Virus record (IMG/VR): IMGVR_UViG_3300044630_007810
Origin: an uncultured virus (IMG/VR IMGVR_UViG_3300044630_007810)
Taxonomy: Duplodnaviria > Heunggongvirae > Uroviricota > Caudoviricetes
DNA: 20,000 nt
Strand: one strand, 5' to 3'
The notes under the pieces were generated by a model. That model had not been told where the DNA came from. It saw nothing but the letters and a program-made list of their open reading frames with translations, and did not search any database. This document shows positions 2,826 to 13,338 of the stretch, piece after piece. Within the stretch, counting starts at the first letter, position 1. Each line of letters opens with the position of its first letter. A program made the translations under genes and the position numbers.

Positions 2826-3839
2826 ATGGCTGAAAAATTTACGACATTTCCAGATATTCCAATTAATATTGAACGAGTAACACAAGAAACTTACGATTCA
2901 TTTGTAAATAGAGAAAGACCTGGCATAGCAGCTTTAGTTGTCCCAGGACCAATAACCAGAAAACAATTATTCGATATATATTGGACAAAAGAATATTCAT
3001 ACACCTTCTCTTTAACAAGCAAATATGGCGGAGTAAATGAAGGTGGAACTAAGAATTCATATACATCAGTTCAAAGAAAAGGTCAGACACGAGCATATTT
3101 GACTCCAACAACAATGGAACAGGGTATTGGTTTTGGAGACAACCTTTTCTTAAATAAAGAGGATAGAGAATCTCTTGGAGAATTAAATGATTCTGATCCA
3201 AGAAAAGCTTTAATTAGTTATGTAACTGCTACTTATCAAGTTGCTACAGGAGATAATTTTTTAGCTAAAGGTTTATGTACCAATCCTATTGCAATAGAAA
3301 AAAAAGCAAGTCAAGAAGAAATGCAAGGCGCACAACCAGTAACTACATATAATGTAGATTTTGAATTTGGTACAACCACTGGTTTTTTTGCTTGGGAAAA
3401 AAGAATAGCGCCTGTTGGGACACCCTTTGCTGCATGGAACATTGTCGAAATAAACCCTGAAACCGACGAAATTAAACAAACAGACAAATATTATTTTTCT
3501 CCTGTCGGCTTCGGAGGAGTCTTTTCTTATCAAGAAGGTCAAGAGTCAGAAGAGAGTGAAAGAATTATTAGATATTTCGCTTCATTTTACGCTTATGGAA
3601 AACCCCCAGTCTTTGATCCCTCAAATACTAATTTTAAAAAAATTGGTAATCTTAAATTTCATGACGCGAAACCACTAGAAATATGGGGAGATCAGCGTGT
3701 TACTGTACTCGAAAGAGTTTCTGCTGAAGATATCTTTGGAAATACTATTTACACATATGAAACTAAAGAAGAGTCCGTTGGTGCTTTTAGTGTAGATTTT
3801 ACTGTAGCAAGCTCAAGTAAATTTAATTTTGAAATTTAA
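2826..3839 (+). CDS. Hypothetical protein (possibly virion-associated)
   Basis: 337-aa ORF whose ATG directly follows the upstream TAA; no recognised motif. Confidence 0.65.
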   Translation: MAEKFTTFPDIPINIERVTQETYDSFVNRERPGIAALVVPGPITRKQLFDIYWTKEYSYTFSLTSKYGGVNEGGTKNSYTSVQRKGQTRAYLTPTTMEQGIGFGDNLFLNKEDRESLGELNDSDPRKALISYVTATYQVATGDNFLAKGLCTNPIAIEKKASQEEMQGAQPVTTYNVDFEFGTTTGFFAWEKRIAPVGTPFAAWNIVEINPETDEIKQTDKYYFSPVGFGGVFSYQEGQESEESERIIRYFASFYAYGKPPVFDPSNTNFKKIGNLKFHDAKPLEIWGDQRVTVLERVSAEDIFGNTIYTYETKEESVGAFSVDFTVASSSKFNFEI

Positions 3840-5424: not shown

Positions 5425-6327
5425 TTATAGATCATAGATTACAGTTCTTCCACCAAATGTTGCACCATAACCAGTGGCTCCAACTGGAACATGAATCGGA
5501 GCTGATCCTGTACTTGAAAAGACACCACTTCCAAGTGTCGGAGCAGTAAGCGCTAAAAAATGAATAATACTTAAGTTAGTGGAAGATGCGAACGCACCAC
5601 TCCCGATGCTCGTCACGGCGCTGCCAATCGTCACACTCGTCAGACCGCTGCAGCCATTGAACGCACCACCCCCGATGCTCGTCACGGCGCTGCCAATCGT
5701 CACACTCGTCAGACCGCTGCAGCCAAAGAACGCATCGCTCCCGATGCTGGTCACGCTGTTGGGGATCGTAATGTCAGTCAGGCCACTACACCCATAAAAA
5801 GCACCACCCCCGATGCTCGTCACGGCGCTGCCAATCGTCACACTCGTCAGACCGCTGCAGCCAAAGAACGCATCGCTCCCGATGCTGGTCACGCTGGCGG
5901 GGATCGTGATGCTGGTTAGACTGGTGCAGCCATTGAATGCAGAGTTCCCAATAGTTTTCAATGACCCCTTAAGGATGACACTAACAACTGCTGTACTATT
6001 AGTTGAAGTCCAATTATTGGGAATAAAGTCACTAGTTTCTTCAAAAAGAACATTGCCATTGATATCAAATGCTCTACTGGTTAAGTTCGTAGATATTGAA
6101 GATCCTATAAATCTAAATCCAGCATCATAAGGAGCAAAAAACAAATCTATTGGTTGATTTAATCTATCAATTTTTCTATTATATTCACGAATTAAATGGT
6201 CATTAAAATCGACTTTAGAAGAAATTTCTTCATACATTGATTGGATACCAGTTCTATAAGAAACCCAAGCTCCAGAACCTGTAGAATAATCAGAATGTAT
6301 TTGAGATTGAAGAAACCTTGGCCCCAT
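5425..6327 (-). CDS. BspA-type leucine-rich repeat (LRR_5) protein with an unrelated N-terminal domain
   Basis: 23-aa repeats [23 protein letters not shown] in the C-terminal half. Confidence 0.85.
5590..5950 (-). repeat. 69-nt-period GC-rich coding repeats of the LRR domain
   Basis: CCCGATGCTCGTCACGGCGCTGCCAATCGTCACACTCGTCAGACCGCTGCAGCCA recurs at 5602, 5671 and 5809. Confidence 0.9.
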
Positions 6328-6368
6328 GTATCTTTTTACACCGAAAAAGATTTAAAAAAATAAAAAAA

Positions 6369-6458
6369 TGGCGGTGAGAAAGGGATTTGAACCCTTGGTA
6401 ATATTTCTACTACGTTCCCTTAGCAAGGGAGTGCTTTAAACCACTCAGCCATCTCACC
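6369..6458 (-). tRNA. tRNA-Ser(GCU)
   Basis: GGTGAGA/TCTCACC acceptor, anticodon loop TTGCTAA, long variable arm, TTCAAAT T-loop, GCCA end. Confidence 0.93.
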
Positions 6459-6460
6459 AA

Positions 6461-6528
6461 TGGTGGATGCGTGAGGGATCGAACCTCATTCCACGACAAG
6501 CGTCATGTCGAAACCAGTAATCGCACCC
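6461..6528 (-). ncRNA. Miniature tmRNA-like RNA (tRNA-like domain only, no tag reading frame)
   Basis: GGGUGCG-AUUACUGGUUUCGA-CAUGAC-GCUU-GUCGUG-GAA-UGAGG-UUCGAUC-CCUCA-CGCAUCC-ACCA. It has G3.U70, a stemless tmRNA-type D-loop, a 3-nt GAA linker and no anticodon loop. Confidence 0.8.
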
Positions 6529-7026
6529 TTAATTTTCTTTATTGAACATAACATAGTTATGAACAGTAACTAAATAATCTTCAGCAATAGCAAGCTTTCC
6601 CTGCATCCATGTTTCTGTAAGATTTTCTTGAACTTTAAGGTCATTCAAGGCATTTAAAATATTATCTGCATGAGCTTTAATTGATGTGATTGAACCAACT
6701 GCCATTTCATAAAGATCTTTATTTGTTTCTTGAAGTTCTTGTTCTGGAGTTTCTTGTTCCATTTCTGGAGCATTCATATCAATTTCTTGAGCTTGTGATA
6801 TCCCAACTTTATGCTCTTTTTCTTTTAGCTCTGAAAAAATAAGAAATTCTTCTCCGTCGATTTCGCCAACGATAGAAGCTTCTGATTTTGATTCGTCAAA
6901 TTGAGTATAGCAAATTGCGACACGTTGTTTATTATCTTCAAATTTTGGATCTTTTGCTACTTCAGATACACAACGACCAATAAAGTCGCTCTTCTTTTCT
7001 TTATTTTTTGGTTTTGGTAAAGGCAT
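6529..7026 (-). CDS. Conserved-looking phage hypothetical protein
   Basis: 165 aa. The N-terminal MPLPKP..E...FIGRC...QR.AICY motif and the C-terminal WMQGKLAIAEDYL helix are familiar from phage hypotheticals. GTGTAA lies upstream. Confidence 0.75.
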   Translation of the reverse strand: MPLPKPKNKEKKSDFIGRCVSEVAKDPKFEDNKQRVAICYTQFDESKSEASIVGEIDGEEFLIFSELKEKEHKVGISQAQEIDMNAPEMEQETPEQELQETNKDLYEMAVGSITSIKAHADNILNALNDLKVQENLTETWMQGKLAIAEDYLVTVHNYVMFNKEN

Positions 7027-7060
7027 CGTTTTGTCTATTTTAGATTATTACACTAAAAAT

Positions 7061-7151
7061 TGGCGGGTAGAGTAGGATTCGAACCCACGGAGGATTCATC
7101 ACCCTCTCAGATTTTCAAGATCTGCACAATAAACCGCTCTGTCATCTACCC
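7061..7151 (-). tRNA. tRNA-Ser(UGA)
   Basis: GGGTAGA/TCTACCC acceptor, CAGAT-CTTGAAA-ATCTG anticodon arm, long variable arm, GCCA end. Confidence 0.93.
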
Positions 7152-7177
7152 ATTTAACAATACTTATTATAATAAAA

Positions 7178-7303
7178 TTATCCTTGCCCTTTATATTTTT
7201 TTCTATAATTTTTAGATTGTTTCAAATGAGAAGTTTTGCTTTTTGCATGAACTCCAGGACGTTTAATTTTCTTGTGTTTTGTTTTTTGTTCTTTTTTGTT
7301 CAT
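7178..7303 (-). CDS. 41-aa highly basic peptide (not in the ORF track)
   Basis: MNKKEQKTKHKKIKRPGVHAKSKTSHLKQSKNYRKKYKGQG* fills the gap between two tRNAs. Confidence 0.7.
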   Translation of the reverse strand: MNKKEQKTKHKKIKRPGVHAKSKTSHLKQSKNYRKKYKGQG

Positions 7304-7315
7304 ATTGTTAGAAAT

Positions 7316-7391
7316 TGGTCCTCCATACTGGACTTGAACCAGTAACTTTCCCCTTATAAAGAAGATACTCTACCGATTGAGTTAATGGAGG
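7316..7391 (-). tRNA. tRNA-Ile(UAU)
   Basis: CCTCCAT/ATGGAGG acceptor, TCTTC-TTTATAA-GGGGA anticodon arm (two G.U pairs), TTCAAGT T-loop, ACCA end. Confidence 0.85.
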
Positions 7392-7437
7392 ATGTTTTTG
7401 TAGTTCACTTTTTATTATGAATGTGTATATAATATAT

Positions 7438-7962
7438 ATGGACTATGAATTATTACAAGAATTAATTTCAAAAAACTTATCAATTGCAAAAATAGCTGAA
7501 GAATTAAATTGTAGCAAAACAAATATAAGATATTGGTTAAGGAAGCACGGACTTAATACAAATTTTACATTTTTAAAAGCTGAATTAAAAGATTGCCCTA
7601 ATGGAGAAAGTTGCAAAATTTGTTCAAATAACTTAACTGGTCATCAGAGATTTTTTTGTAGTAAAAAATGTAGAATTAAAAGTAAAAATCCAAATACAGT
7701 AGAAAGACAAAAGAGAATAAGCAAGGATAGAAAACTTGAATTAATCAAAATGAGTGGTGGTTGCTGTGAGGCTTGTGGATATAATAAAAATTATTCTGCT
7801 CTTCAATTTCATCATTTAGATCCATCAAATAAAACTTTTAATATTGACGCGAGAATGCTGTCTAATACAAAATGGGATTCTATTATAAAGGAATGGAGAA
7901 AATGTAAGTTACTATGCGCAAATTGTCATTTTGAAATACATAATCCAGAAAATATTATTTAA
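7438..7962 (+). CDS. HNH endonuclease with N-terminal HTH and zinc-ribbon; start probably 7438 rather than 7417
   Basis: HTH-like SIAKIAEELNCSKTNIRYWL; CKIC..FCSKKC; CEACG..LQFHHLD...LLCANCHFEIH. Confidence 0.85.
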   Translation: MDYELLQELISKNLSIAKIAEELNCSKTNIRYWLRKHGLNTNFTFLKAELKDCPNGESCKICSNNLTGHQRFFCSKKCRIKSKNPNTVERQKRISKDRKLELIKMSGGCCEACGYNKNYSALQFHHLDPSNKTFNIDARMLSNTKWDSIIKEWRKCKLLCANCHFEIHNPENII

Positions 7963-7967
7963 AATAA

Positions 7968-8039
7968 TAGGGGCGGTGGGACTTGAACCCACACTCCATC
8001 AATTATGAGTTGATCGCTTCACCTTTAAGCTACACCCCT
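7968..8039 (-). tRNA. tRNA with CAU anticodon (elongator Met or lysidine-type Ile2), no encoded CCA
   Basis: AGGGGTG/CGCCCCT acceptor, ATCAA-CTCATAA-TTGAT arm, TTCAAGT T-loop. Confidence 0.88.
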
Positions 8040-8053
8040 GTTTTTTTATAAAA

Positions 8054-8131
8054 TGGTACGCGGAATGGGATTCGAACCCATACTGTAGTGATTTTAAGTC
8101 ACTTGTCTCCTACCAGTTGGACTACCCGCGC
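8054..8131 (-). tRNA. tRNA-Leu(UAA) with a short variable loop
   Basis: GCGCGGG/TCCGCGT acceptor, AGTGA-CTTAAAA-TCACT arm, 5-nt variable region ACAGT, ACCA end. Confidence 0.9.
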
Positions 8132-8149
8132 ATTCTCGACTGTGAAATT

Positions 8150-8177
8150 AGTATAACACACATTCACTTGGGGTCAA
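8150..8177 (-). promoter_or_regulatory. Sigma70-type promoter for the downstream half of the tRNA array
   Basis: TTGACC-16 nt-TATACT with an extended -10 (TGT TATACT), 18 nt upstream of tRNA-Leu. Confidence 0.65.
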
Positions 8178-8221
8178 GATAAATTTCAGAAAGTTTTCGA
8201 ATTAAAAGTGTAAATAAATGG

Positions 8222-9565
8222 ATGGCAGATCTCTATACTTTCCAAAACCTTGGTCAATTGTCGCATACAGCAGGACAAATTCCTTTTGTTTACGATAGGG
8301 CAAATGATCATTATAGACCATTAGAGCAGAAAGATTTGAGTTTTGCCAATTCTGCTGGTTCTACTTCTTTTGATGCGTTTGGTCGCATGAGAACTTCTTC
8401 TCCATTGACCTTATTTGATTCAAGTCATAGATATGCTGACAATGGTCTTTGGTCTACAGCTAGTGGTTTTAGTGGCAGTGGTGTTTTCAATCAAAATCAA
8501 GGATTAGTTGATTTAACTGTAACAAATACTTCTGGTTCATTCGTTACTAGAGAAACAACAAAAGTTTTTGCTTATCAACCAGGAAAATCATTATTAAATT
8601 TAAGTACTTTTGTAATGTCACCAGCAAAAACTGGTTTAAGACAAAGAGTTGGTTACTATGGTGCTGATAATGGTTTCTATTTAGAACAAGCAGACAGTAG
8701 TGTATCTTTTGTAAAAAGAAGTGTTGTAACAGGTTCTTTAGTAAACACACCTGTTTTACAAGCTAATTGGAATGGGGATAAACTTGATGGATCTGGTCCT
8801 TCAGGATTAACTCTTGATCTCACCAACGCACAAATTCTTTGGATGGATCTTGAGTGGTTAGGAGTGGGATCTGTAAGAATGGGGTTTGTTATTAATGGAC
8901 AATTTATTCTTTGTCATACTTTTCATCACGCCAATATTATTGCTTCTACTTATATTACTACAGCTTCTTTGCCGCTGAGATATGAAATAGCAAATACTGC
9001 CGCAACTATTGGCAGCAGTACATTGAAACAAATTTGTTCTTCTGTGATTTCAGAAGGTGGATATGAATTGAGAGGATTACAACAAGCAGTAAGTCAAGAT
9101 GTCAATGCCCCTTACGAGTTAATAACAACGGTAAATACTGACTACCCAGTAATTACTATTAAATTAAAGTCAACAAGATTAGACGCAATAGTAATTCTTA
9201 CTGCGCTTTCTATTTTACCAACAACAACTGGTAATTTTAAATGGAAAATAATTGCAAACGGGACAACAAGTGGTGGAAGTGGAGACTGGATTTCTGCTGG
9301 AGCAAATTCTGCTGTAGAATATAAAAAAGATGCCACAACCATTTCTGGTGGTAGAATACTTGCCGCAGGATTTATTAGCCAAACAAATCAAGCAAGTGCA
9401 ACTCTCGACATCTTAAAAGAAGCTCTTTTTAAATTCCAATTAGAAAGAAATGGTTTAACTGGTGCTGCTCAAGAATTAACATTAGCTATTTCTGCTGGAA
9501 CCGCAACAGGAGGAAGTCCTGCAAAAGTTCTTGCCTCAATGGATTGGGAAGAAATAAGTAGATAA
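8222..9565 (+). CDS. Probable virion structural protein (beta-rich) lying antisense within the tRNA array
   Basis: 447 aa, Ser/Thr/Gly-rich. The DAFGR.R.S.P.TLFDS, YQPGKS and EWLGVGSVR motifs are familiar from large-phage proteins. GTGTAA lies 8 nt before the ATG. Confidence 0.65.
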   Translation: MADLYTFQNLGQLSHTAGQIPFVYDRANDHYRPLEQKDLSFANSAGSTSFDAFGRMRTSSPLTLFDSSHRYADNGLWSTASGFSGSGVFNQNQGLVDLTVTNTSGSFVTRETTKVFAYQPGKSLLNLSTFVMSPAKTGLRQRVGYYGADNGFYLEQADSSVSFVKRSVVTGSLVNTPVLQANWNGDKLDGSGPSGLTLDLTNAQILWMDLEWLGVGSVRMGFVINGQFILCHTFHHANIIASTYITTASLPLRYEIANTAATIGSSTLKQICSSVISEGGYELRGLQQAVSQDVNAPYELITTVNTDYPVITIKLKSTRLDAIVILTALSILPTTTGNFKWKIIANGTTSGGSGDWISAGANSAVEYKKDATTISGGRILAAGFISQTNQASATLDILKEALFKFQLERNGLTGAAQELTLAISAGTATGGSPAKVLASMDWEEISR

Positions 9566-9568
9566 AAA

Positions 9569-9641
9569 TAGGGAGTGAGGGATTCGAACCCCCGACATTC
9601 TGCGTGTAAAGCAGACGCAACTACCGCTGTGCTAACTCCCC
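9569..9641 (-). tRNA. tRNA-Val(UAC), no encoded CCA
   Basis: GGGGAGT/ACTCCCT acceptor, TCTGC-TTTACAC-GCAGA arm, TTCGAAT T-loop. Confidence 0.92.
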
Positions 9642-9643
9642 TT

Positions 9644-9717
9644 TGGACGCACGTTCCAGTAACGCTCTGGACTATGCGGTTTTGCAGACCACTGCATGAC
9701 TTCTCTGCCAACGTGCG
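9644..9717 (-). tRNA. tRNA-Cys(GCA) with a non-canonical T-loop
   Basis: CGCACGT/ACGTGCG acceptor, GTGGT-CTGCAAA-ACCGC arm, U73 discriminator + CCA, T-loop AGCGTTA. Confidence 0.82.
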
Positions 9718-9722
9718 AAAAG

Positions 9723-9796
9723 TGGTGGAGAAGGAGGAAATCGAATCCTCAATTGAAGCTTGCAAAGCTACCGTTTTACCATTAAACTACATCCCC
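9723..9796 (-). tRNA. tRNA-Ala(UGC)
   Basis: G3.U70, loop TTTGCAA, TTCGATT T-loop, ACCA end; one U.U mismatch each in the acceptor and anticodon stems. Confidence 0.88.
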
Positions 9797-9800
9797 TAAA

Positions 9801-9872
9801 TCGGGTAATTGAGAATCGAACTCAACTAAACTTGCTCCCAAAGCAAGCGCCTCGCCAGTCGGCCTTTACCCG
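9801..9872 (-). tRNA. tRNA-Pro(UGG), no encoded CCA
   Basis: CGGGTAA/TTACCCG acceptor, CTTGC-TTTGGGA-GCAAG arm, TTCGATT T-loop. Confidence 0.88.
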
Positions 9873-10405
9873 ATAAAATTATTTTTAAAGTTTTTCACAT
9901 ATTCATCCACTTTATCTATTATAAGATTTGAATATTTACTATGTATATATTGATGATGTGTTGGACATAATGGAACCAAATTTATAGGATCATTATCTTT
10001 ATGATTTTTATTATAATGATGGACAGTAACTATTTTGTCTTCATCACAAACCACACATTTTTTTTCATGATATAAAAAACAAGTAGATCTATATGCATTT
10101 TTATTCCAATTGCCGTGTTTTTCACCAGATCTAAAAAAAGTATTTGAACATGAATATGAACAAGTTGTTTTTTCTCTTCGATGATTTTTTTGAGTTATAA
10201 ATTCTAAATCACAAACTGGACAAATTTTTTTAACAAATGGGTATTTAGTTTGGTTAAACTTTAGATTAAAATGAGAAATATCAAAATTATTATCTTTAAT
10301 AATTTTATTTACCTTGCGTATGCTAGATCCATTAACTGGTAAATTGAGTTTTCTACAGACATCAGATTTTGAATGACTCGATTGAATTATTTTTTTCAAA
10401 TCCAT
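9866..10405 (-). CDS. HNH endonuclease with zinc-ribbon
   Basis: CPVC..TCSYSC; CVVC..VTVHH...N...NLVPLCPTHHQYIH. Confidence 0.85.
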   Translation of the reverse strand: MDLKKIIQSSHSKSDVCRKLNLPVNGSSIRKVNKIIKDNNFDISHFNLKFNQTKYPFVKKICPVCDLEFITQKNHRREKTTCSYSCSNTFFRSGEKHGNWNKNAYRSTCFLYHEKKCVVCDEDKIVTVHHYNKNHKDNDPINLVPLCPTHHQYIHSKYSNLIIDKVDEYVKNFKNNFIG

Positions 10406-10488
10406 ATAATTATATACATTTTATTATCGTAATAGTGAAATTTGAATTCCAAATGCAATATTCTACCAAGTTTAATTTTATTTAAAAA

Positions 10489-10562
10489 TGGAGGCCATTG
10501 ACAGAATCGAACTGTCATCCGACGATTACAAATCGCCCGTTTTACCATTAAACTAAACGGCC
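10489..10562 (-). tRNA. tRNA-Thr(UGU)
   Basis: GGCCGTT/AATGGCC acceptor, GGCGA-TTTGTAA-TCGTC arm, TCCA end. Confidence 0.9.
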
Positions 10563-10564
10563 TA

Positions 10565-10639
10565 TGGCTCCGATTCGTGGGATCGAACCACGGACCCAGC
10601 GATTAACAGTCGCTTGCTCTGCCTCTGAGCTAAATCGGA
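10565..10639 (-). tRNA. tRNA-Asn(GUU)
   Basis: TCCGATT/AATCGGA acceptor, AGCGA-CTGTTAA-TCGCT arm, GCCA end. Confidence 0.95.
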
Positions 10640-10650
10640 GTTAAAAATAC

Positions 10651-10788
10651 TTTCTATTGCTGAAGAAGCTTTGGTCTTAAAGACACCACTCGTTTATCCT
10701 TCTGTCACTTTTCTGCTAGTAGACGCTCGTCGGAGATTTCCAATCTGCTTTCCCAACATACTTCGGGCGATAAAGACCACAATAGAAA
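10651..10788 (-). ncRNA. Unidentified structured RNA (~138 nt)
   Basis: Closing helices UUUCUAUUG/CAAUAGAAA and UGGUCUU/AAGACCA, with further inner helices; no ORF. Confidence 0.6.
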
Positions 10789-10806
10789 AAACATAGAAAA
10801 TGATTT

Positions 10807-10903
10807 GCCCATAACAGATTGCTGTCACACTCACCAAGGGCTGTGGCTATCTAGGAACCACACCTAGCTGCGTCATGTCTTTGCATTCGTGCATGATACG
10901 AAT
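10807..10903 (-). ncRNA. Unidentified RNA with two candidate H-type pseudoknots and a 3' hairpin
   Basis: AUUCGU/ACGAAU with loop UCAUG pairing to downstream CAUGA; CUAGG/CCUAG with loop UGUGGUU pairing to AGCCACA; GCCC/GGGC enclosing GUGACAG/CUGUUAU. Confidence 0.5.
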
Positions 10904-10973
10904 TGCGAGGGGAAGGAATTTAACCTCCACTCTAGACTATGGGCCTAGCGATCTCCGCATGATCCCTCTCGCA
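10903..10973 (-). tRNA. Non-canonical tRNA-like element with CAU anticodon
   Basis: Cloverleaf with UGCGAG/CUCGCA acceptor, GAUC/GAUC D-stem, CUAGG-CCCAUAG-UCUAG arm and GGAGG-UUAAAUU-CCUUC T-arm; C33, no CCA. Confidence 0.6.
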
Positions 10974-10978
10974 AAGTG

Positions 10979-11171
10979 TTTTCCCCACTACCGATTAATT
11001 AGCCAAGCGGAGCTTTGACCAATTTGAAGAAACACAGTGACTATTTCATCTTGGTAGCGACTCCAAGCCTACTTTAATGTGTGTCGGATTACATTTAGCA
11101 TCATCGGGTTGCTAACCCGCCTTTAGCCTTAATGCTCATTGTAGGATCATCGCCTACAATGGCAGGGAAAA
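10979..11171 (-). ncRNA. Unidentified multibranched structured RNA (~190 nt)
   Basis: Closing helix UUUUCCCUGCC/GGUAGUGGGGAAAA encloses six hairpins of 5-10 bp. The G.U pairs work only on the minus strand. Confidence 0.7.
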
Positions 11172-11174
11172 AAT

Positions 11175-11252
11175 TGGTTGCGGGTTTCGGAATTGCACCG
11201 AAACTACTTCTGCTTATGAGACAGATCCAGCACTACTACTGGTTGACCCGCG
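11175..11252 (-). tRNA. Initiator-like tRNA-Met(CAU), atypical
   Basis: CGCGGGT/ACCCGCA acceptor with C1:A72 mismatch, ACCA end, TCTGT-CTCATAA-GCAGA arm, T-loop TGCAATT. Confidence 0.8.
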
Positions 11253-11368: not shown

Positions 11369-11941
11369 TTACACAGAACCCAAAAAATATTCCCACTCTT
11401 CTCTTACCTTACTTGTGTTCAACATTAAAGCGGGAATTTCTGGCGCAGCAACTGGTTCATTTTTAACATTAAAAAATGGAAACTTACTAGCCTTTCTTGT
11501 GTTGCAAGGTTTACATGCCAATGTTCTATTTTCATGATCATCAGTCCCCCCTTTACTTTTGGGGTTGATGTGATCAATTGTTAAATCAGCGATTTTAAAT
11601 TTATTTAAACAATACTGACAAGTAAAGTTATAAATCTTTGCCATCTCCAAGGTGGTCAATTTCTTTTTCCTTGGGCGACGAAAAAATTTACTCGTTACGA
11701 TAATAACAGTTGGAATAGGCCAAACACCTTTAGCACTTCTCAATACAGGTTGATCTTCATAAAATTCAGCATCTTTATTCCATCTATCTAAAGAATGAAA
11801 AACATTATTGTTTTTATCGAGCGCAGTAATATGACCCTTCAACAAATGTGAGAATGCCGCTCTTGCTGTAATAGCATTGATTGGTTGCCAAGCATTATTA
11901 AGCAAAAGTGTTGTTTTACATTGCGATGTTACAATATTCAT
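11369..11941 (-). CDS. HNH endonuclease (McrA-like family with LxLN..xxP N-terminus); start probably 11941
   Basis: LLLNNAWQPI; TCQYC..LTIDHINPKSKGG...N..LACKPCNTRK. The ATG at 11941 overlaps the upstream TGA. Confidence 0.88.
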   Translation of the reverse strand: MNIVTSQCKTTLLLNNAWQPINAITARAAFSHLLKGHITALDKNNNVFHSLDRWNKDAEFYEDQPVLRSAKGVWPIPTVIIVTSKFFRRPRKKKLTTLEMAKIYNFTCQYCLNKFKIADLTIDHINPKSKGGTDDHENRTLACKPCNTRKASKFPFFNVKNEPVAAPEIPALMLNTSKVREEWEYFLGSV

Positions 11942-12639
11942 TTTCTTAAATATTTCCAATCTTTCCATTTGATAGAATTATTTGCGACCCTCCAACGACA
12001 AGTATCTTTATGTATATTTAAAGATATAGATGCTTGTAAAATTGTTGCATATTTAATTCCATTTATTTGTACTGGTCTGGCTGCTGGATTTTTACTACCT
12101 AATTTTGATTCAGATATTTTTTTTCTACTTTCTAGATTATGTTTATGTGGAAGTCTTTTTTTACCCAGTTCACTTAATTTTTTTCTAGTCTCTTTTGTAT
12201 GTTTCTTCCCATAAAATGGATTTTTTTTTCCAAATAAGTTTAGATGATAATTTGAATTTTTTATTTTTAATTTAGATTCTTCAGATAGAAAAACCCCCCC
12301 CTTTCGCAAAGATAAACATTTAGACCTTTCTTCTTTTAACTTTTTATATAAACGAGAATTTATATATCTTAAATTATTGCCTCTTGGATTAGCTATATTT
12401 AAAAAATGAAAAGCATGTAACATTTTAAAATAAAAAACTCCAGTTGTAAATTTACATAATAAATAATGGCACAAGTAATGCTCTCTGGCGGTTAATTTAA
12501 CAATATTAGATTTAATATCTTTTCCATTTAATGAAATTGGAATAATGTGATGTTTTTCCACATAACCAGAAATTATTTTATTTTTAGCATTGTCTATGAT
12601 TTTGTGATAAAGTTTATAGTATTTATTTTTTAAAAACAT
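11938..12639 (-). CDS. Free-standing HNH homing endonuclease with NUMOD3-like repeats
   Basis: EKHHIIP...N.V.LTAREHYLCH; NPFYGKKHTKETRKKLS. Confidence 0.85.
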   Translation of the reverse strand: MFLKNKYYKLYHKIIDNAKNKIISGYVEKHHIIPISLNGKDIKSNIVKLTAREHYLCHYLLCKFTTGVFYFKMLHAFHFLNIANPRGNNLRYINSRLYKKLKEERSKCLSLRKGGVFLSEESKLKIKNSNYHLNLFGKKNPFYGKKHTKETRKKLSELGKKRLPHKHNLESRKKISESKLGSKNPAARPVQINGIKYATILQASISLNIHKDTCRWRVANNSIKWKDWKYLRK

Positions 12640-12687: not shown

Positions 12688-13338
12688 TTATTTTAAAATA
12701 TATTTACAAGAAATTGGAAAATGTTGAAGCATGATATCTTTAATTTGTTGAGCAACAAATCTAGTTTCTAATTGGACATCTTTAGATAGCCTTAGATTAC
12801 AAACCCTAGAGAAAAAATATAAAGTTCCAGACCAATACCATTCTGTCATCATATTTTGAGGGAGAACCATTCTTGCTTGTTCTGGGCATACGCCAGCATT
12901 CAAAAGAGATTTATAAGTAGAAATAGCTATATCACAACTCGCATAAATGCTACAATTATCCGAAAAAGAAACGTCCACAAATTGATCTTCATGAGAGCCT
13001 TGTTTTTTATCCTTATTTCTTTTTCTCCAATTGTCTGGATAGTAGATTTCAGGCTCCGAATCTACATAACGACGACTTACTTCATTAATAACCCCACCAA
13101 CTTGATGTTTAGCTAGTTGTCTAGCAACAAAGATTGGCGCTTTAATATGAAAAGAAAGTGAAGCGTGACCAAATGGAGTCCAATGATTTTCTCTTGCCAA
13201 AAAAGCAATAAGTTTTTCATCACCCTCTTTGAAGCTTCCATCTTCATTAAAATCAGATTTCTTATTGAAAGAAACTCTTGCGGCATTAACCACAGAAATA
13301 TCTGATCCCATTTTGTCAATAAATTCGACTTTAATCAT
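12688..13338 (-). CDS. thyX: FAD-dependent thymidylate synthase
   Basis: NAARVSF, HWTPFGH, APIFVARQLAKHQVG..NEVSRRYV, PEQARMVLPQ, Q.E.R motifs. Confidence 0.95.
   Translation of the reverse strand: MIKVEFIDKMGSDISVVNAARVSFNKKSDFNEDGSFKEGDEKLIAFLARENHWTPFGHASLSFHIKAPIFVARQLAKHQVGGVINEVSRRYVDSEPEIYYPDNWRKRNKDKKQGSHEDQFVDVSFSDNCSIYASCDIAISTYKSLLNAGVCPEQARMVLPQNMMTEWYWSGTLYFFSRVCNLRLSKDVQLETRFVAQQIKDIMLQHFPISCKYILK

Follow-up and report, generated by a model that had tools for sequence, protein, structure and literature searches.

We report that a 68-nt gene on the minus strand of an uncultured phage genome encodes what, judged from its sequence, its fold and its covarying relatives, is a genuine tag-less mini-tmRNA. 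The gene lies at positions 6461..6528 of a 20,000-nt stretch of DNA (IMG/VR record IMGVR_UViG_3300044630_007810; Caudoviricetes), the whole of which we call the window. It encodes a whole tRNA-like domain (TLD) of the transfer-messenger RNA (tmRNA) type, including a P2 helix that is closed by a short loop, and it has no coding part. We propose, with a probability of roughly 0.55, that this mini-tmRNA would be charged with alanine, bind the host's SmpB and compete with the host's own tmRNA, so that SsrA tagging would fall.

Read 5′ to 3′ on the minus strand (6528..6461), the element begins GGGTGCG ATTACTGGTTTCGA CATGAC GCTT GTCGTG GAA and continues TGAGG TTCGATC CCTCA CGCATCC ACCA, 68 nt in all. 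The 5′ acceptor strand GGGUGCG (RNA positions 1–7; 6522..6528), assigned from sequence and fold, contains a G3 that is paired with U70. The 3′ acceptor strand CGCAUCC is followed by the discriminator A73 and an encoded CCA (RNA 58–68; 6461..6471; sequence and Rfam alignment). Between the two strands lie a stemless 14-nt D loop, AUUACUGGUUUCGA (RNA 8–21; 6508..6521), which aligns to the Rfam tmRNA consensus Au..cuGGaUUCGA; the P2 hairpin, CAUGAC and GUCGUG closed by a GCUU loop (RNA 22–37; 6492..6507), taken from the fold; a GAA linker (RNA 38–40; 6489..6491), which according to the Rfam alignment forms with G37 the GGA of the tmRNA GAC...GGA motif; and the T arm UGAGG-UUCGAUC-CCUCA (RNA 41–57; 6472..6488), seen in both the fold and the Rfam alignment. 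Three helices make up the minimum-free-energy fold: the acceptor (7 bp), P2 (6 bp, closed by a loop of 4 nt) and the T arm (5 bp). The six P2 pairs were all counted as Watson–Crick, and the helix is capped. A first-pass annotation, made from the letters of the window, had described these same 68 nt with a 7-bp acceptor, G3.U70, A73, CCA, a stemless D loop and a capped 6-bp helix; the sequence reads back identically, and its layout matches both the minimum-free-energy fold and the letters. The 68 nt hold no resume codon, tag frame, stop codon or pseudoknots PK1–PK4.

The Rfam tmRNA model (RF00023) aligned to a 72-nt segment with a score of 39.4 bits (cmscan, E 3.4e-15) over model positions 1–374, skipping 312 internal positions in favor of 4 nt; the match covered just the 5′ and 3′ ends of the model, as the first-pass annotation had expected of a TLD without an mRNA-like domain. 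In this alignment the element matched nearly all of the consensus letters GGG.G.GAU..CUGG.UUCGAC ... GGA..GGUUCGAU.CC...UCCACCA, and the tmRNA features present are the acceptor with G3.U70, A73 and CCA, the stemless D loop with ..UGGxUUCGAC, the GAC...GGA junction and a T loop of the UUCGA type. When 201 nt were supplied, RF00023 returned just a 13.7-bit truncated match to its 3′ end, and at gathering scores Rfam listed only tRNAs over the window, with no tmRNA match to the element. Six 66-nt RNAs from other viral contigs, the window excluded, served to build a second covariance model, R1. Applied to the whole window with filters off, R1 scored 61.4 bits (E 5e-14) at 6461–6528, and its next-best scores were those of a tRNA-Ala (21.7 bits) and a tRNA-Thr (21.1 bits).

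The possibility that the element is a tRNA, for example a tRNA-Ala, was considered and rejected. ARAGORN did not call the element and found no tmRNA or tag peptide in the window, the tRNA model RF00005 had no gathering-score match to it, and the tRNA model scored below the tmRNA model, which suppressed it within their clan. RF00005 likewise had no match at E up to 1 to the copies of the element in two related genomes (G001 and G002). The mitochondrial tmRNA family RF02544 was not listed at E up to 10 among the 4227 families scanned, in a listing that omits lower-scoring overlaps from the same clan.

We then quantify the conservation of the element in related phages. A 165-aa open reading frame (ORF) lies upstream of the element (6529..7026, minus strand), its TAA stop (6531–6529) directly preceding G1, and syntenic sites were found through homologues of this ORF, with no RNA pattern used. 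The syntenic set contains eight distinct variants including the window's, each starting 0–2 nt after the ORF's stop: 68 nt in the window and in L034, 65 nt in L036 and L293, 67 nt in L295, 69 nt in L038, and 72 nt both in L035 (2985–3056; also L297 and L298) and in L037 (2984–3055; also L296). The window's 68 nt, with a single C-to-T change in the D loop, are found in contigs L032, L033 and L034 (the last also labeled L292); since the same 68 nt occur in three other contigs, the element is no assembly artefact. The identical three-helix fold is found in all eight variants, and 98.6% of their cells are paired, versus 76.4% in shuffles and 40–56% in slid controls. Double, compensatory changes occur at 10 of the 18 pairs, including three of the six in P2. 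Fitting the alignment to the model favors the structure; the same picture emerges from the slid controls and from the sequences as they stand. G3.U70 is present in 8/8 variants, as is A73 when read from the sequences. P2 varies in sequence and has 6 to 8 pairs, and its cap is always 4–5 nt long, so that a capped P2, whose conservation the first-pass annotation had made a test of its proposal, is found in every variant.

A full-length tmRNA at the element's place would have pointed to a recent deletion or an assembly collapse in the window; none was found in the syntenic relatives. One relative, G002, is 140 kb long with a CheckV completeness of 100%. This complete genome contains no SmpB gene and, besides its copy of the element, no standard or permuted tmRNA above the cut-off. 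RF00023 scored the relative's copy at 33.5 to 42.1 bits, and G002's sole match to the model is this copy, at 42.1 bits. Distant homologues of the 165-aa ORF (L039–L045) have neither the element nor tRNAs beside them.

A wider family of TLD-only RNAs was collected by scanning viral contigs with two DNA patterns. The first fixed only the D-loop and T-loop motifs and found 30 loci, 17 of which read as TLD-only; the second found at least 120 loci, and all figures for the wider family refer to the matches listed. The letters fixed by the patterns are UUCGAC, GGUUCGA..CC and, in the second pattern only, CCACCA, so conservation at those letters is by construction. A strict script retained 44 unique TLD-only sequences, all of which have a 5′ GGG, U70-C71-C72 and a discriminator A (L038 in an adjusted register). 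R1 matched 62 of 94 pattern loci at E up to 0.001; among its weakest matches, at least two (L055 and L136) are the ends of full-length tmRNAs according to ARAGORN. When 52 distinct rows were aligned, 97.5% of the cells were paired, versus 67.2% in shuffles, and 13 of the 18 pairs had double changes, with all six P2 pairs covarying. The covariation score was 0.694, versus 0.146 in shuffles (0 of 500 reach 0.694) and 0.07–0.13 in slid controls. G1-C72, G3.U70 and A73 are each present in 52/52 rows. The linker G (column 75) is found in 52/52 rows and the linker A (column 76) in 51/52, both columns lying outside the pattern-fixed letters; the two G letters of the D loop are found in 48/52 and 46/52 rows.

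The family divides by length. A short class of 61–69 nt with a simple capped P2, which includes the window's element, accounts for 22 of the 52 rows, at least two of which are ends of full tmRNAs. The remaining 30 rows are 72–83 nt long, and their P2 has an internal loop and a second small hairpin. ARAGORN called none of 17 short forms a tmRNA or a credible tRNA; its sole call was a tRNA-Glu overlapping L103. The first-pass annotation had suggested a search for TLD-only homologues with covariation, and both the 52 rows and the eight syntenic variants are such homologues. Taken together with the RF00023 alignment, they support the element's identity as a complete tmRNA-type TLD that lacks an mRNA-like domain and has its P2 capped.

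Bacterial genome contigs scanned with the same pattern gave at least 120 loci, among which the strict script found one TLD-only element in the matches listed (L230). When R1 was applied to the first 100 bacterial loci, there were 36 matches in 35 loci at E up to 0.001, and only L230 exceeded 31 bits. This 80-nt TLD-only element (L230:288–367), which R1 scores at 48.7 bits, comes from a Butyrivibrio metagenome-assembled genome, on a contig of 1.6 kb that may be phage DNA binned with that genome. Five of the lower-scoring bacterial matches were inspected. One is a 76-nt tRNA, and at three Nocardioides loci, which lack a neighboring GGG acceptor strand, the match looks by eye like the 3′ part of a longer tmRNA gene. 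Among the matches listed, the TLD-only family is mainly viral.

TLD-only tmRNAs have been published before. The first-pass annotation had known of no characterized phage example; the novelty that this implied does not hold, since Hudson, Lau and Williams (2014; PMC4131195) list the Mycobacterium phage DS6A as ‘TLD only’ (tmRNA Website tmID 11587; see also PMC11915505). A DS6A-like molecule is reported to inhibit endogenous tmRNA strongly when expressed in E. coli (PMC4131195, PMC11915505), an experiment that is cited to Mao et al. 2009 (PMC4131195). We located the DS6A element as 82 nt at 28478–28559 of JN698994 (L170:979–1060), between gp33 and gp34, where no feature is annotated. R1 matches it with 26 bits (E 7e-6) and a 17-nt insert in P2. 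Both elements are phage-encoded, with a complete alanine-type TLD, no tag frame and a match to one model. However, the DS6A element is 82 nt long with a longer P2 and belongs to a siphovirus of mycobacteria, whereas the window's 68-nt element has a P2 capped after six pairs and lies within the tRNA array of a relative of T4-like cyanomyophages. In the literature searched, we found no description of a phage TLD-only family beyond DS6A.

The element can be placed among other TLD-bearing RNAs in the same way. The ~80-nt phage mini-tmRNAs in viral contigs share its G3.U70 acceptor, D loop, GGA linker and T arm, and one covariance model covers both, but their 72–83 nt include a P2 with an internal loop and a second hairpin, unlike the 61–69-nt class of the window. 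Full-length tmRNAs (RF00023; permuted form RF04321) have a TLD consensus that the window matches at nearly all highly conserved positions; the window's RNA lacks the 312 model positions with the resume codon, tag frame, stop codon and pseudoknots. A 2025 tmRNA database paper includes nine “Standard, no CDS” sequences and reports two ~65-bp plastid tmRNA genes (Mallomonadaceae) as well as tag-less mitochondrial tmRNAs (PMC11915505). These organelle tmRNAs without a coding sequence (mitochondrial, RF02544; plastid, PMC11915505) are also natural, similar in size and devoid of a tag reading frame, but permutation is usual among the mitochondrial genes, which exist alongside a dedicated SmpB (PMC11915505), whereas the window's RNA is a phage gene that would act beside a host tmRNA. 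Engineered TLD fragments made for structural and kinetic work (Neubauer 2012; Shimizu and Ueda 2006) likewise join a TLD to a shortened P2; these engineered fragments bind SmpB and EF-Tu and accept peptide in vitro. They are laboratory constructs, while the window's element is a natural gene, and we liken the two by architecture.

Previous studies of tmRNA define what such an RNA could interact with. G3.U70 and A73 are the determinants read by alanyl-tRNA synthetase (AlaRS), SmpB binds the TLD at its elbow and at the D loop, every partner of tmRNA other than S1 binds to the TLD, and the complex of Ala-TLD, SmpB and EF-Tu binds the stalled ribosome (PMC3968760). In the mechanism that we propose, the host's tRNA-processing enzymes would cut the RNA out of the tRNA-array transcript, and host AlaRS would charge it with alanine through G3.U70 and A73. 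The RNA would then bind host SmpB and, once charged, EF-Tu, and it would compete with host tmRNA for SmpB and stalled ribosomes. The RNA has no resume codon or tag frame; therefore, in this proposal, SsrA tagging would fall, and the net effect would be less tagging and degradation of the proteins made during infection.

Titration of SmpB and tag-less rescue, both offered by the first-pass annotation, are the two leading readings. In the second, the RNA would be productive: Ala-mini-tmRNA with SmpB and EF-Tu would take the nascent chain, extended by one alanine, from non-stop ribosomes, and the chain would be released by peptidyl-RNA drop-off and Pth or by an ArfB-type factor, so that the phage gains ribosome recycling without protein degradation. 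The invariance of G3.U70 and of A73 across the 52 rows, the 44 unique sequences and the eight syntenic variants argues that charging is under selection. Moreover, a TLD-only truncated tmRNA accepts peptide in vitro (Shimizu and Ueda 2006, cited in PMC3895274), and the organelle tmRNAs that have no coding sequence are conserved along with SmpB (PMC11915505). However, the RNA has no stop codon with which to end rescue, the release step is hypothetical, and the sole experiment cited for such a molecule reports inhibition of tmRNA (PMC4131195, PMC11915505). We consider productive tag-free rescue possible but somewhat unlikely. A still more tentative extension, which we regard as doubtful, is that a working tag-free rescue RNA would free chains made on broken mRNAs from the degradation tag, with a core that the L035 and L037 variants would imply to be the alanine-accepting helix and the UUCGAC...GGAC junction.

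Several observations weigh against the reading of the element as an alanine-charged, SmpB-binding competitor of host tmRNA. Its folding energy is ordinary (−22.3 kcal/mol, z −1.23; 23 of 200 shuffles fold equally well), and with a z of only −1.23 thermodynamics by itself is no proof of the element. Its RF00023 score of 39.4 is below the Rfam gathering score of 47, because the RNA lacks five-sixths of the model. Charging and SmpB binding are predicted from the conservation of G3.U70, A73 and the D loop. Pure titration of SmpB would not need G3.U70 or A73, which leaves their invariance unexplained. Some syntenic variants also deviate: in L036 and L293 the acceptor is only 6 bp and the T stem only 4 bp long, and CCA is not encoded; in L295 the first pair is mismatched (U.C) and the tail reads AGUU, with no CCA; and L035 and L037 lack both the GG of the D loop and the UUCGA T loop, whereas SmpB binding requires an interaction between the D loop and the T loop (PMC3968760). 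The T arms of the L035/L037 type, found also in L296, L297 and L298, read UUCGG-GGCGGCU-CCGAA or UUCGG-GGCAGUU-CCGAA. This subclade keeps G3.U70, A73, CCA, UUCGAC...GGAC and an 8-bp P2, and three double changes, all compensatory, separate L035 from L037. As these variants lack the elbow motifs, either they have another way of binding SmpB or selection acts on a function other than SmpB binding; on the tag-free rescue reading, that they are compensated all the same would mean that the selected core is not the canonical tRNA elbow.

The same imperfect relatives, with the mismatch and missing CCA of L295, the shortened stems of L036 and L293 and the lost T loop of L035 and L037, would fit the reading of the element as a functionless remnant, either an internally deleted tmRNA or a degenerate tRNA-Ala. 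Decay does not account for the compensatory changes that keep all three helices in the eight syntenic variants and the 52 family rows, or for the three that separate L035 from L037, and no relative has a longer form at the site. The first-pass annotation had argued against decay from the intact stems; covariation bears out that argument and largely refutes the remnant reading, which we judge highly improbable.

We now turn to the genomic setting of the element. It is the last-but-one gene of a minus-strand tRNA array, at whose 3′ end it lies (6369..11252; 11 tRNAs, all on the minus strand, by ARAGORN and 10 by Rfam at gathering scores). Its CCA is followed after 2 nt by tRNA-Ser(gct) (6369..6458, minus strand; ARAGORN and Rfam) and then by a T run. 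An encoded CCA is also found in 8 of the 11 tRNAs. The gene after the element varies: tRNA-Ser(gct) follows it in the window, and L035, L037 and L038 have tRNA-Gly(tcc) at that place; downstream of the L036 element (3034–3060) there is no tRNA and a T run directly follows the discriminator, as it also does in L293 (1150–1165). A promoter and terminator scan of 6200–7400 found sites no more frequent than in shuffles. Neither PHROG nor Pfam gave a family for the 165-aa ORF, nor did it match a named Atlas cluster, and without a family match no link between the ORF and the RNA could be drawn. An RNase P cut at G1 would leave the mRNA of this ORF ending at or near its stop codon, close to a non-stop 3′ end.

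The position of the element at the junction of ORF and tRNAs, together with the start of all eight syntenic variants 0–2 nt after the ORF's stop, would also suit a processing signal: a tRNA-shaped mark by which RNase P and the 3′ enzymes would cut the tRNA array away from the mRNA upstream of it, with no role for the RNA itself. Such a mark would have no need of G3.U70, A73, the UUCGAC...GGA motif or a conserved P2. In addition, among 17 short forms in other contigs, only L130 has a tRNA within 300 nt; the other 16 lack one. We consider a mere processing signal very unlikely.

The phage itself appears to be related to the T4-like cyanomyophages. Among the window's PHROG matches are an endolysin, a thymidylate synthase, a virion structural protein and several endonucleases of the HNH and homing types. 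The virion structural protein is 63–64% identical to those of the T4-like cyanomyophages S-RIM12, S-RIM50, S-RIM8 and S-WAM2, and 132 of the 176 phage records that match it are Synechococcus phages by name. The kinship of this protein makes a cyanobacterium, or a host of similar ecology, the likely host. In cyanophage S-RIM12 (KX349325), R1 had no match at E up to 0.01, and a megablast of window positions 5500–7500 against the phage collection gave no match. No homologue of the virion protein was found in three other contigs with short forms (G004–G006), which are fragments 32–49% complete, and the result is uninformative given that incompleteness. Blastn of the 68 nt against the phage collection gave only 25–31-nt matches to the T-arm and acceptor end, none covering 80% of the query, in Caulobacter phiCbK-like phages and one Salmonella phage. 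In 26 Caulobacter phiCbK-like records (H17–H42; for example, JX100813 51601–51625), a 25-nt match at 92% identity covers the T-arm, acceptor and CCA end, where no feature is annotated.

Phages that integrate into ssrA carry the 3′ end of that gene. The element might accordingly be an attP-type fragment of a host tmRNA gene, used for integration into ssrA, and ssrA fragments in prophages are mentioned as background in PMC9004378. However, the 5′ acceptor strand and D loop are also present here, the acceptor sequences differ among relatives by paired changes, no integrase family matched any of the 25 window ORFs scanned, and the nearest cultured relatives are lytic T4-like cyanomyophages. An attP origin is scarcely credible. 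The processing-signal, remnant and attP readings are all poorly compatible with the combination of covariation and both halves of the TLD.

Other features of the window lie around the array. Between and beside the tRNAs are four endonuclease genes, three of the HNH type and one of the homing type (7417–7962 on the plus strand; 9866–10405, 11369–11968 and 11938–12639 on the minus strand), the last of them adjoining the thymidylate synthase gene (12688–13338). A second tRNA-Met(cat) (11175–11252, minus strand) is called by ARAGORN and is not listed by the Rfam tRNA model at its gathering score. Just downstream of the array, positions 5425–6327 on the minus strand encode a protein of 300 aa that contains leucine-rich repeats of the BspA type (Pfam LRR_5, 184 bits).

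The TLD-only kind of tmRNA is thus already published, and the window adds to it, from relatives of T4-like cyanomyophages, a short class that has a capped P2 and shows covariation of its own, extending a published single example, DS6A, to these phages. Because ARAGORN and the Rfam gathering score miss it, the element goes unannotated, like the DS6A copy in GenBank. It is a minimal natural ligand, in that its 68 nt hold all the features of tmRNA that AlaRS, SmpB, EF-Tu and the processing enzymes are known to recognize, and no others. If the proposal is true, a very small RNA that interferes with the host's pathway for ribosome rescue and protein tagging would be present in many phages.

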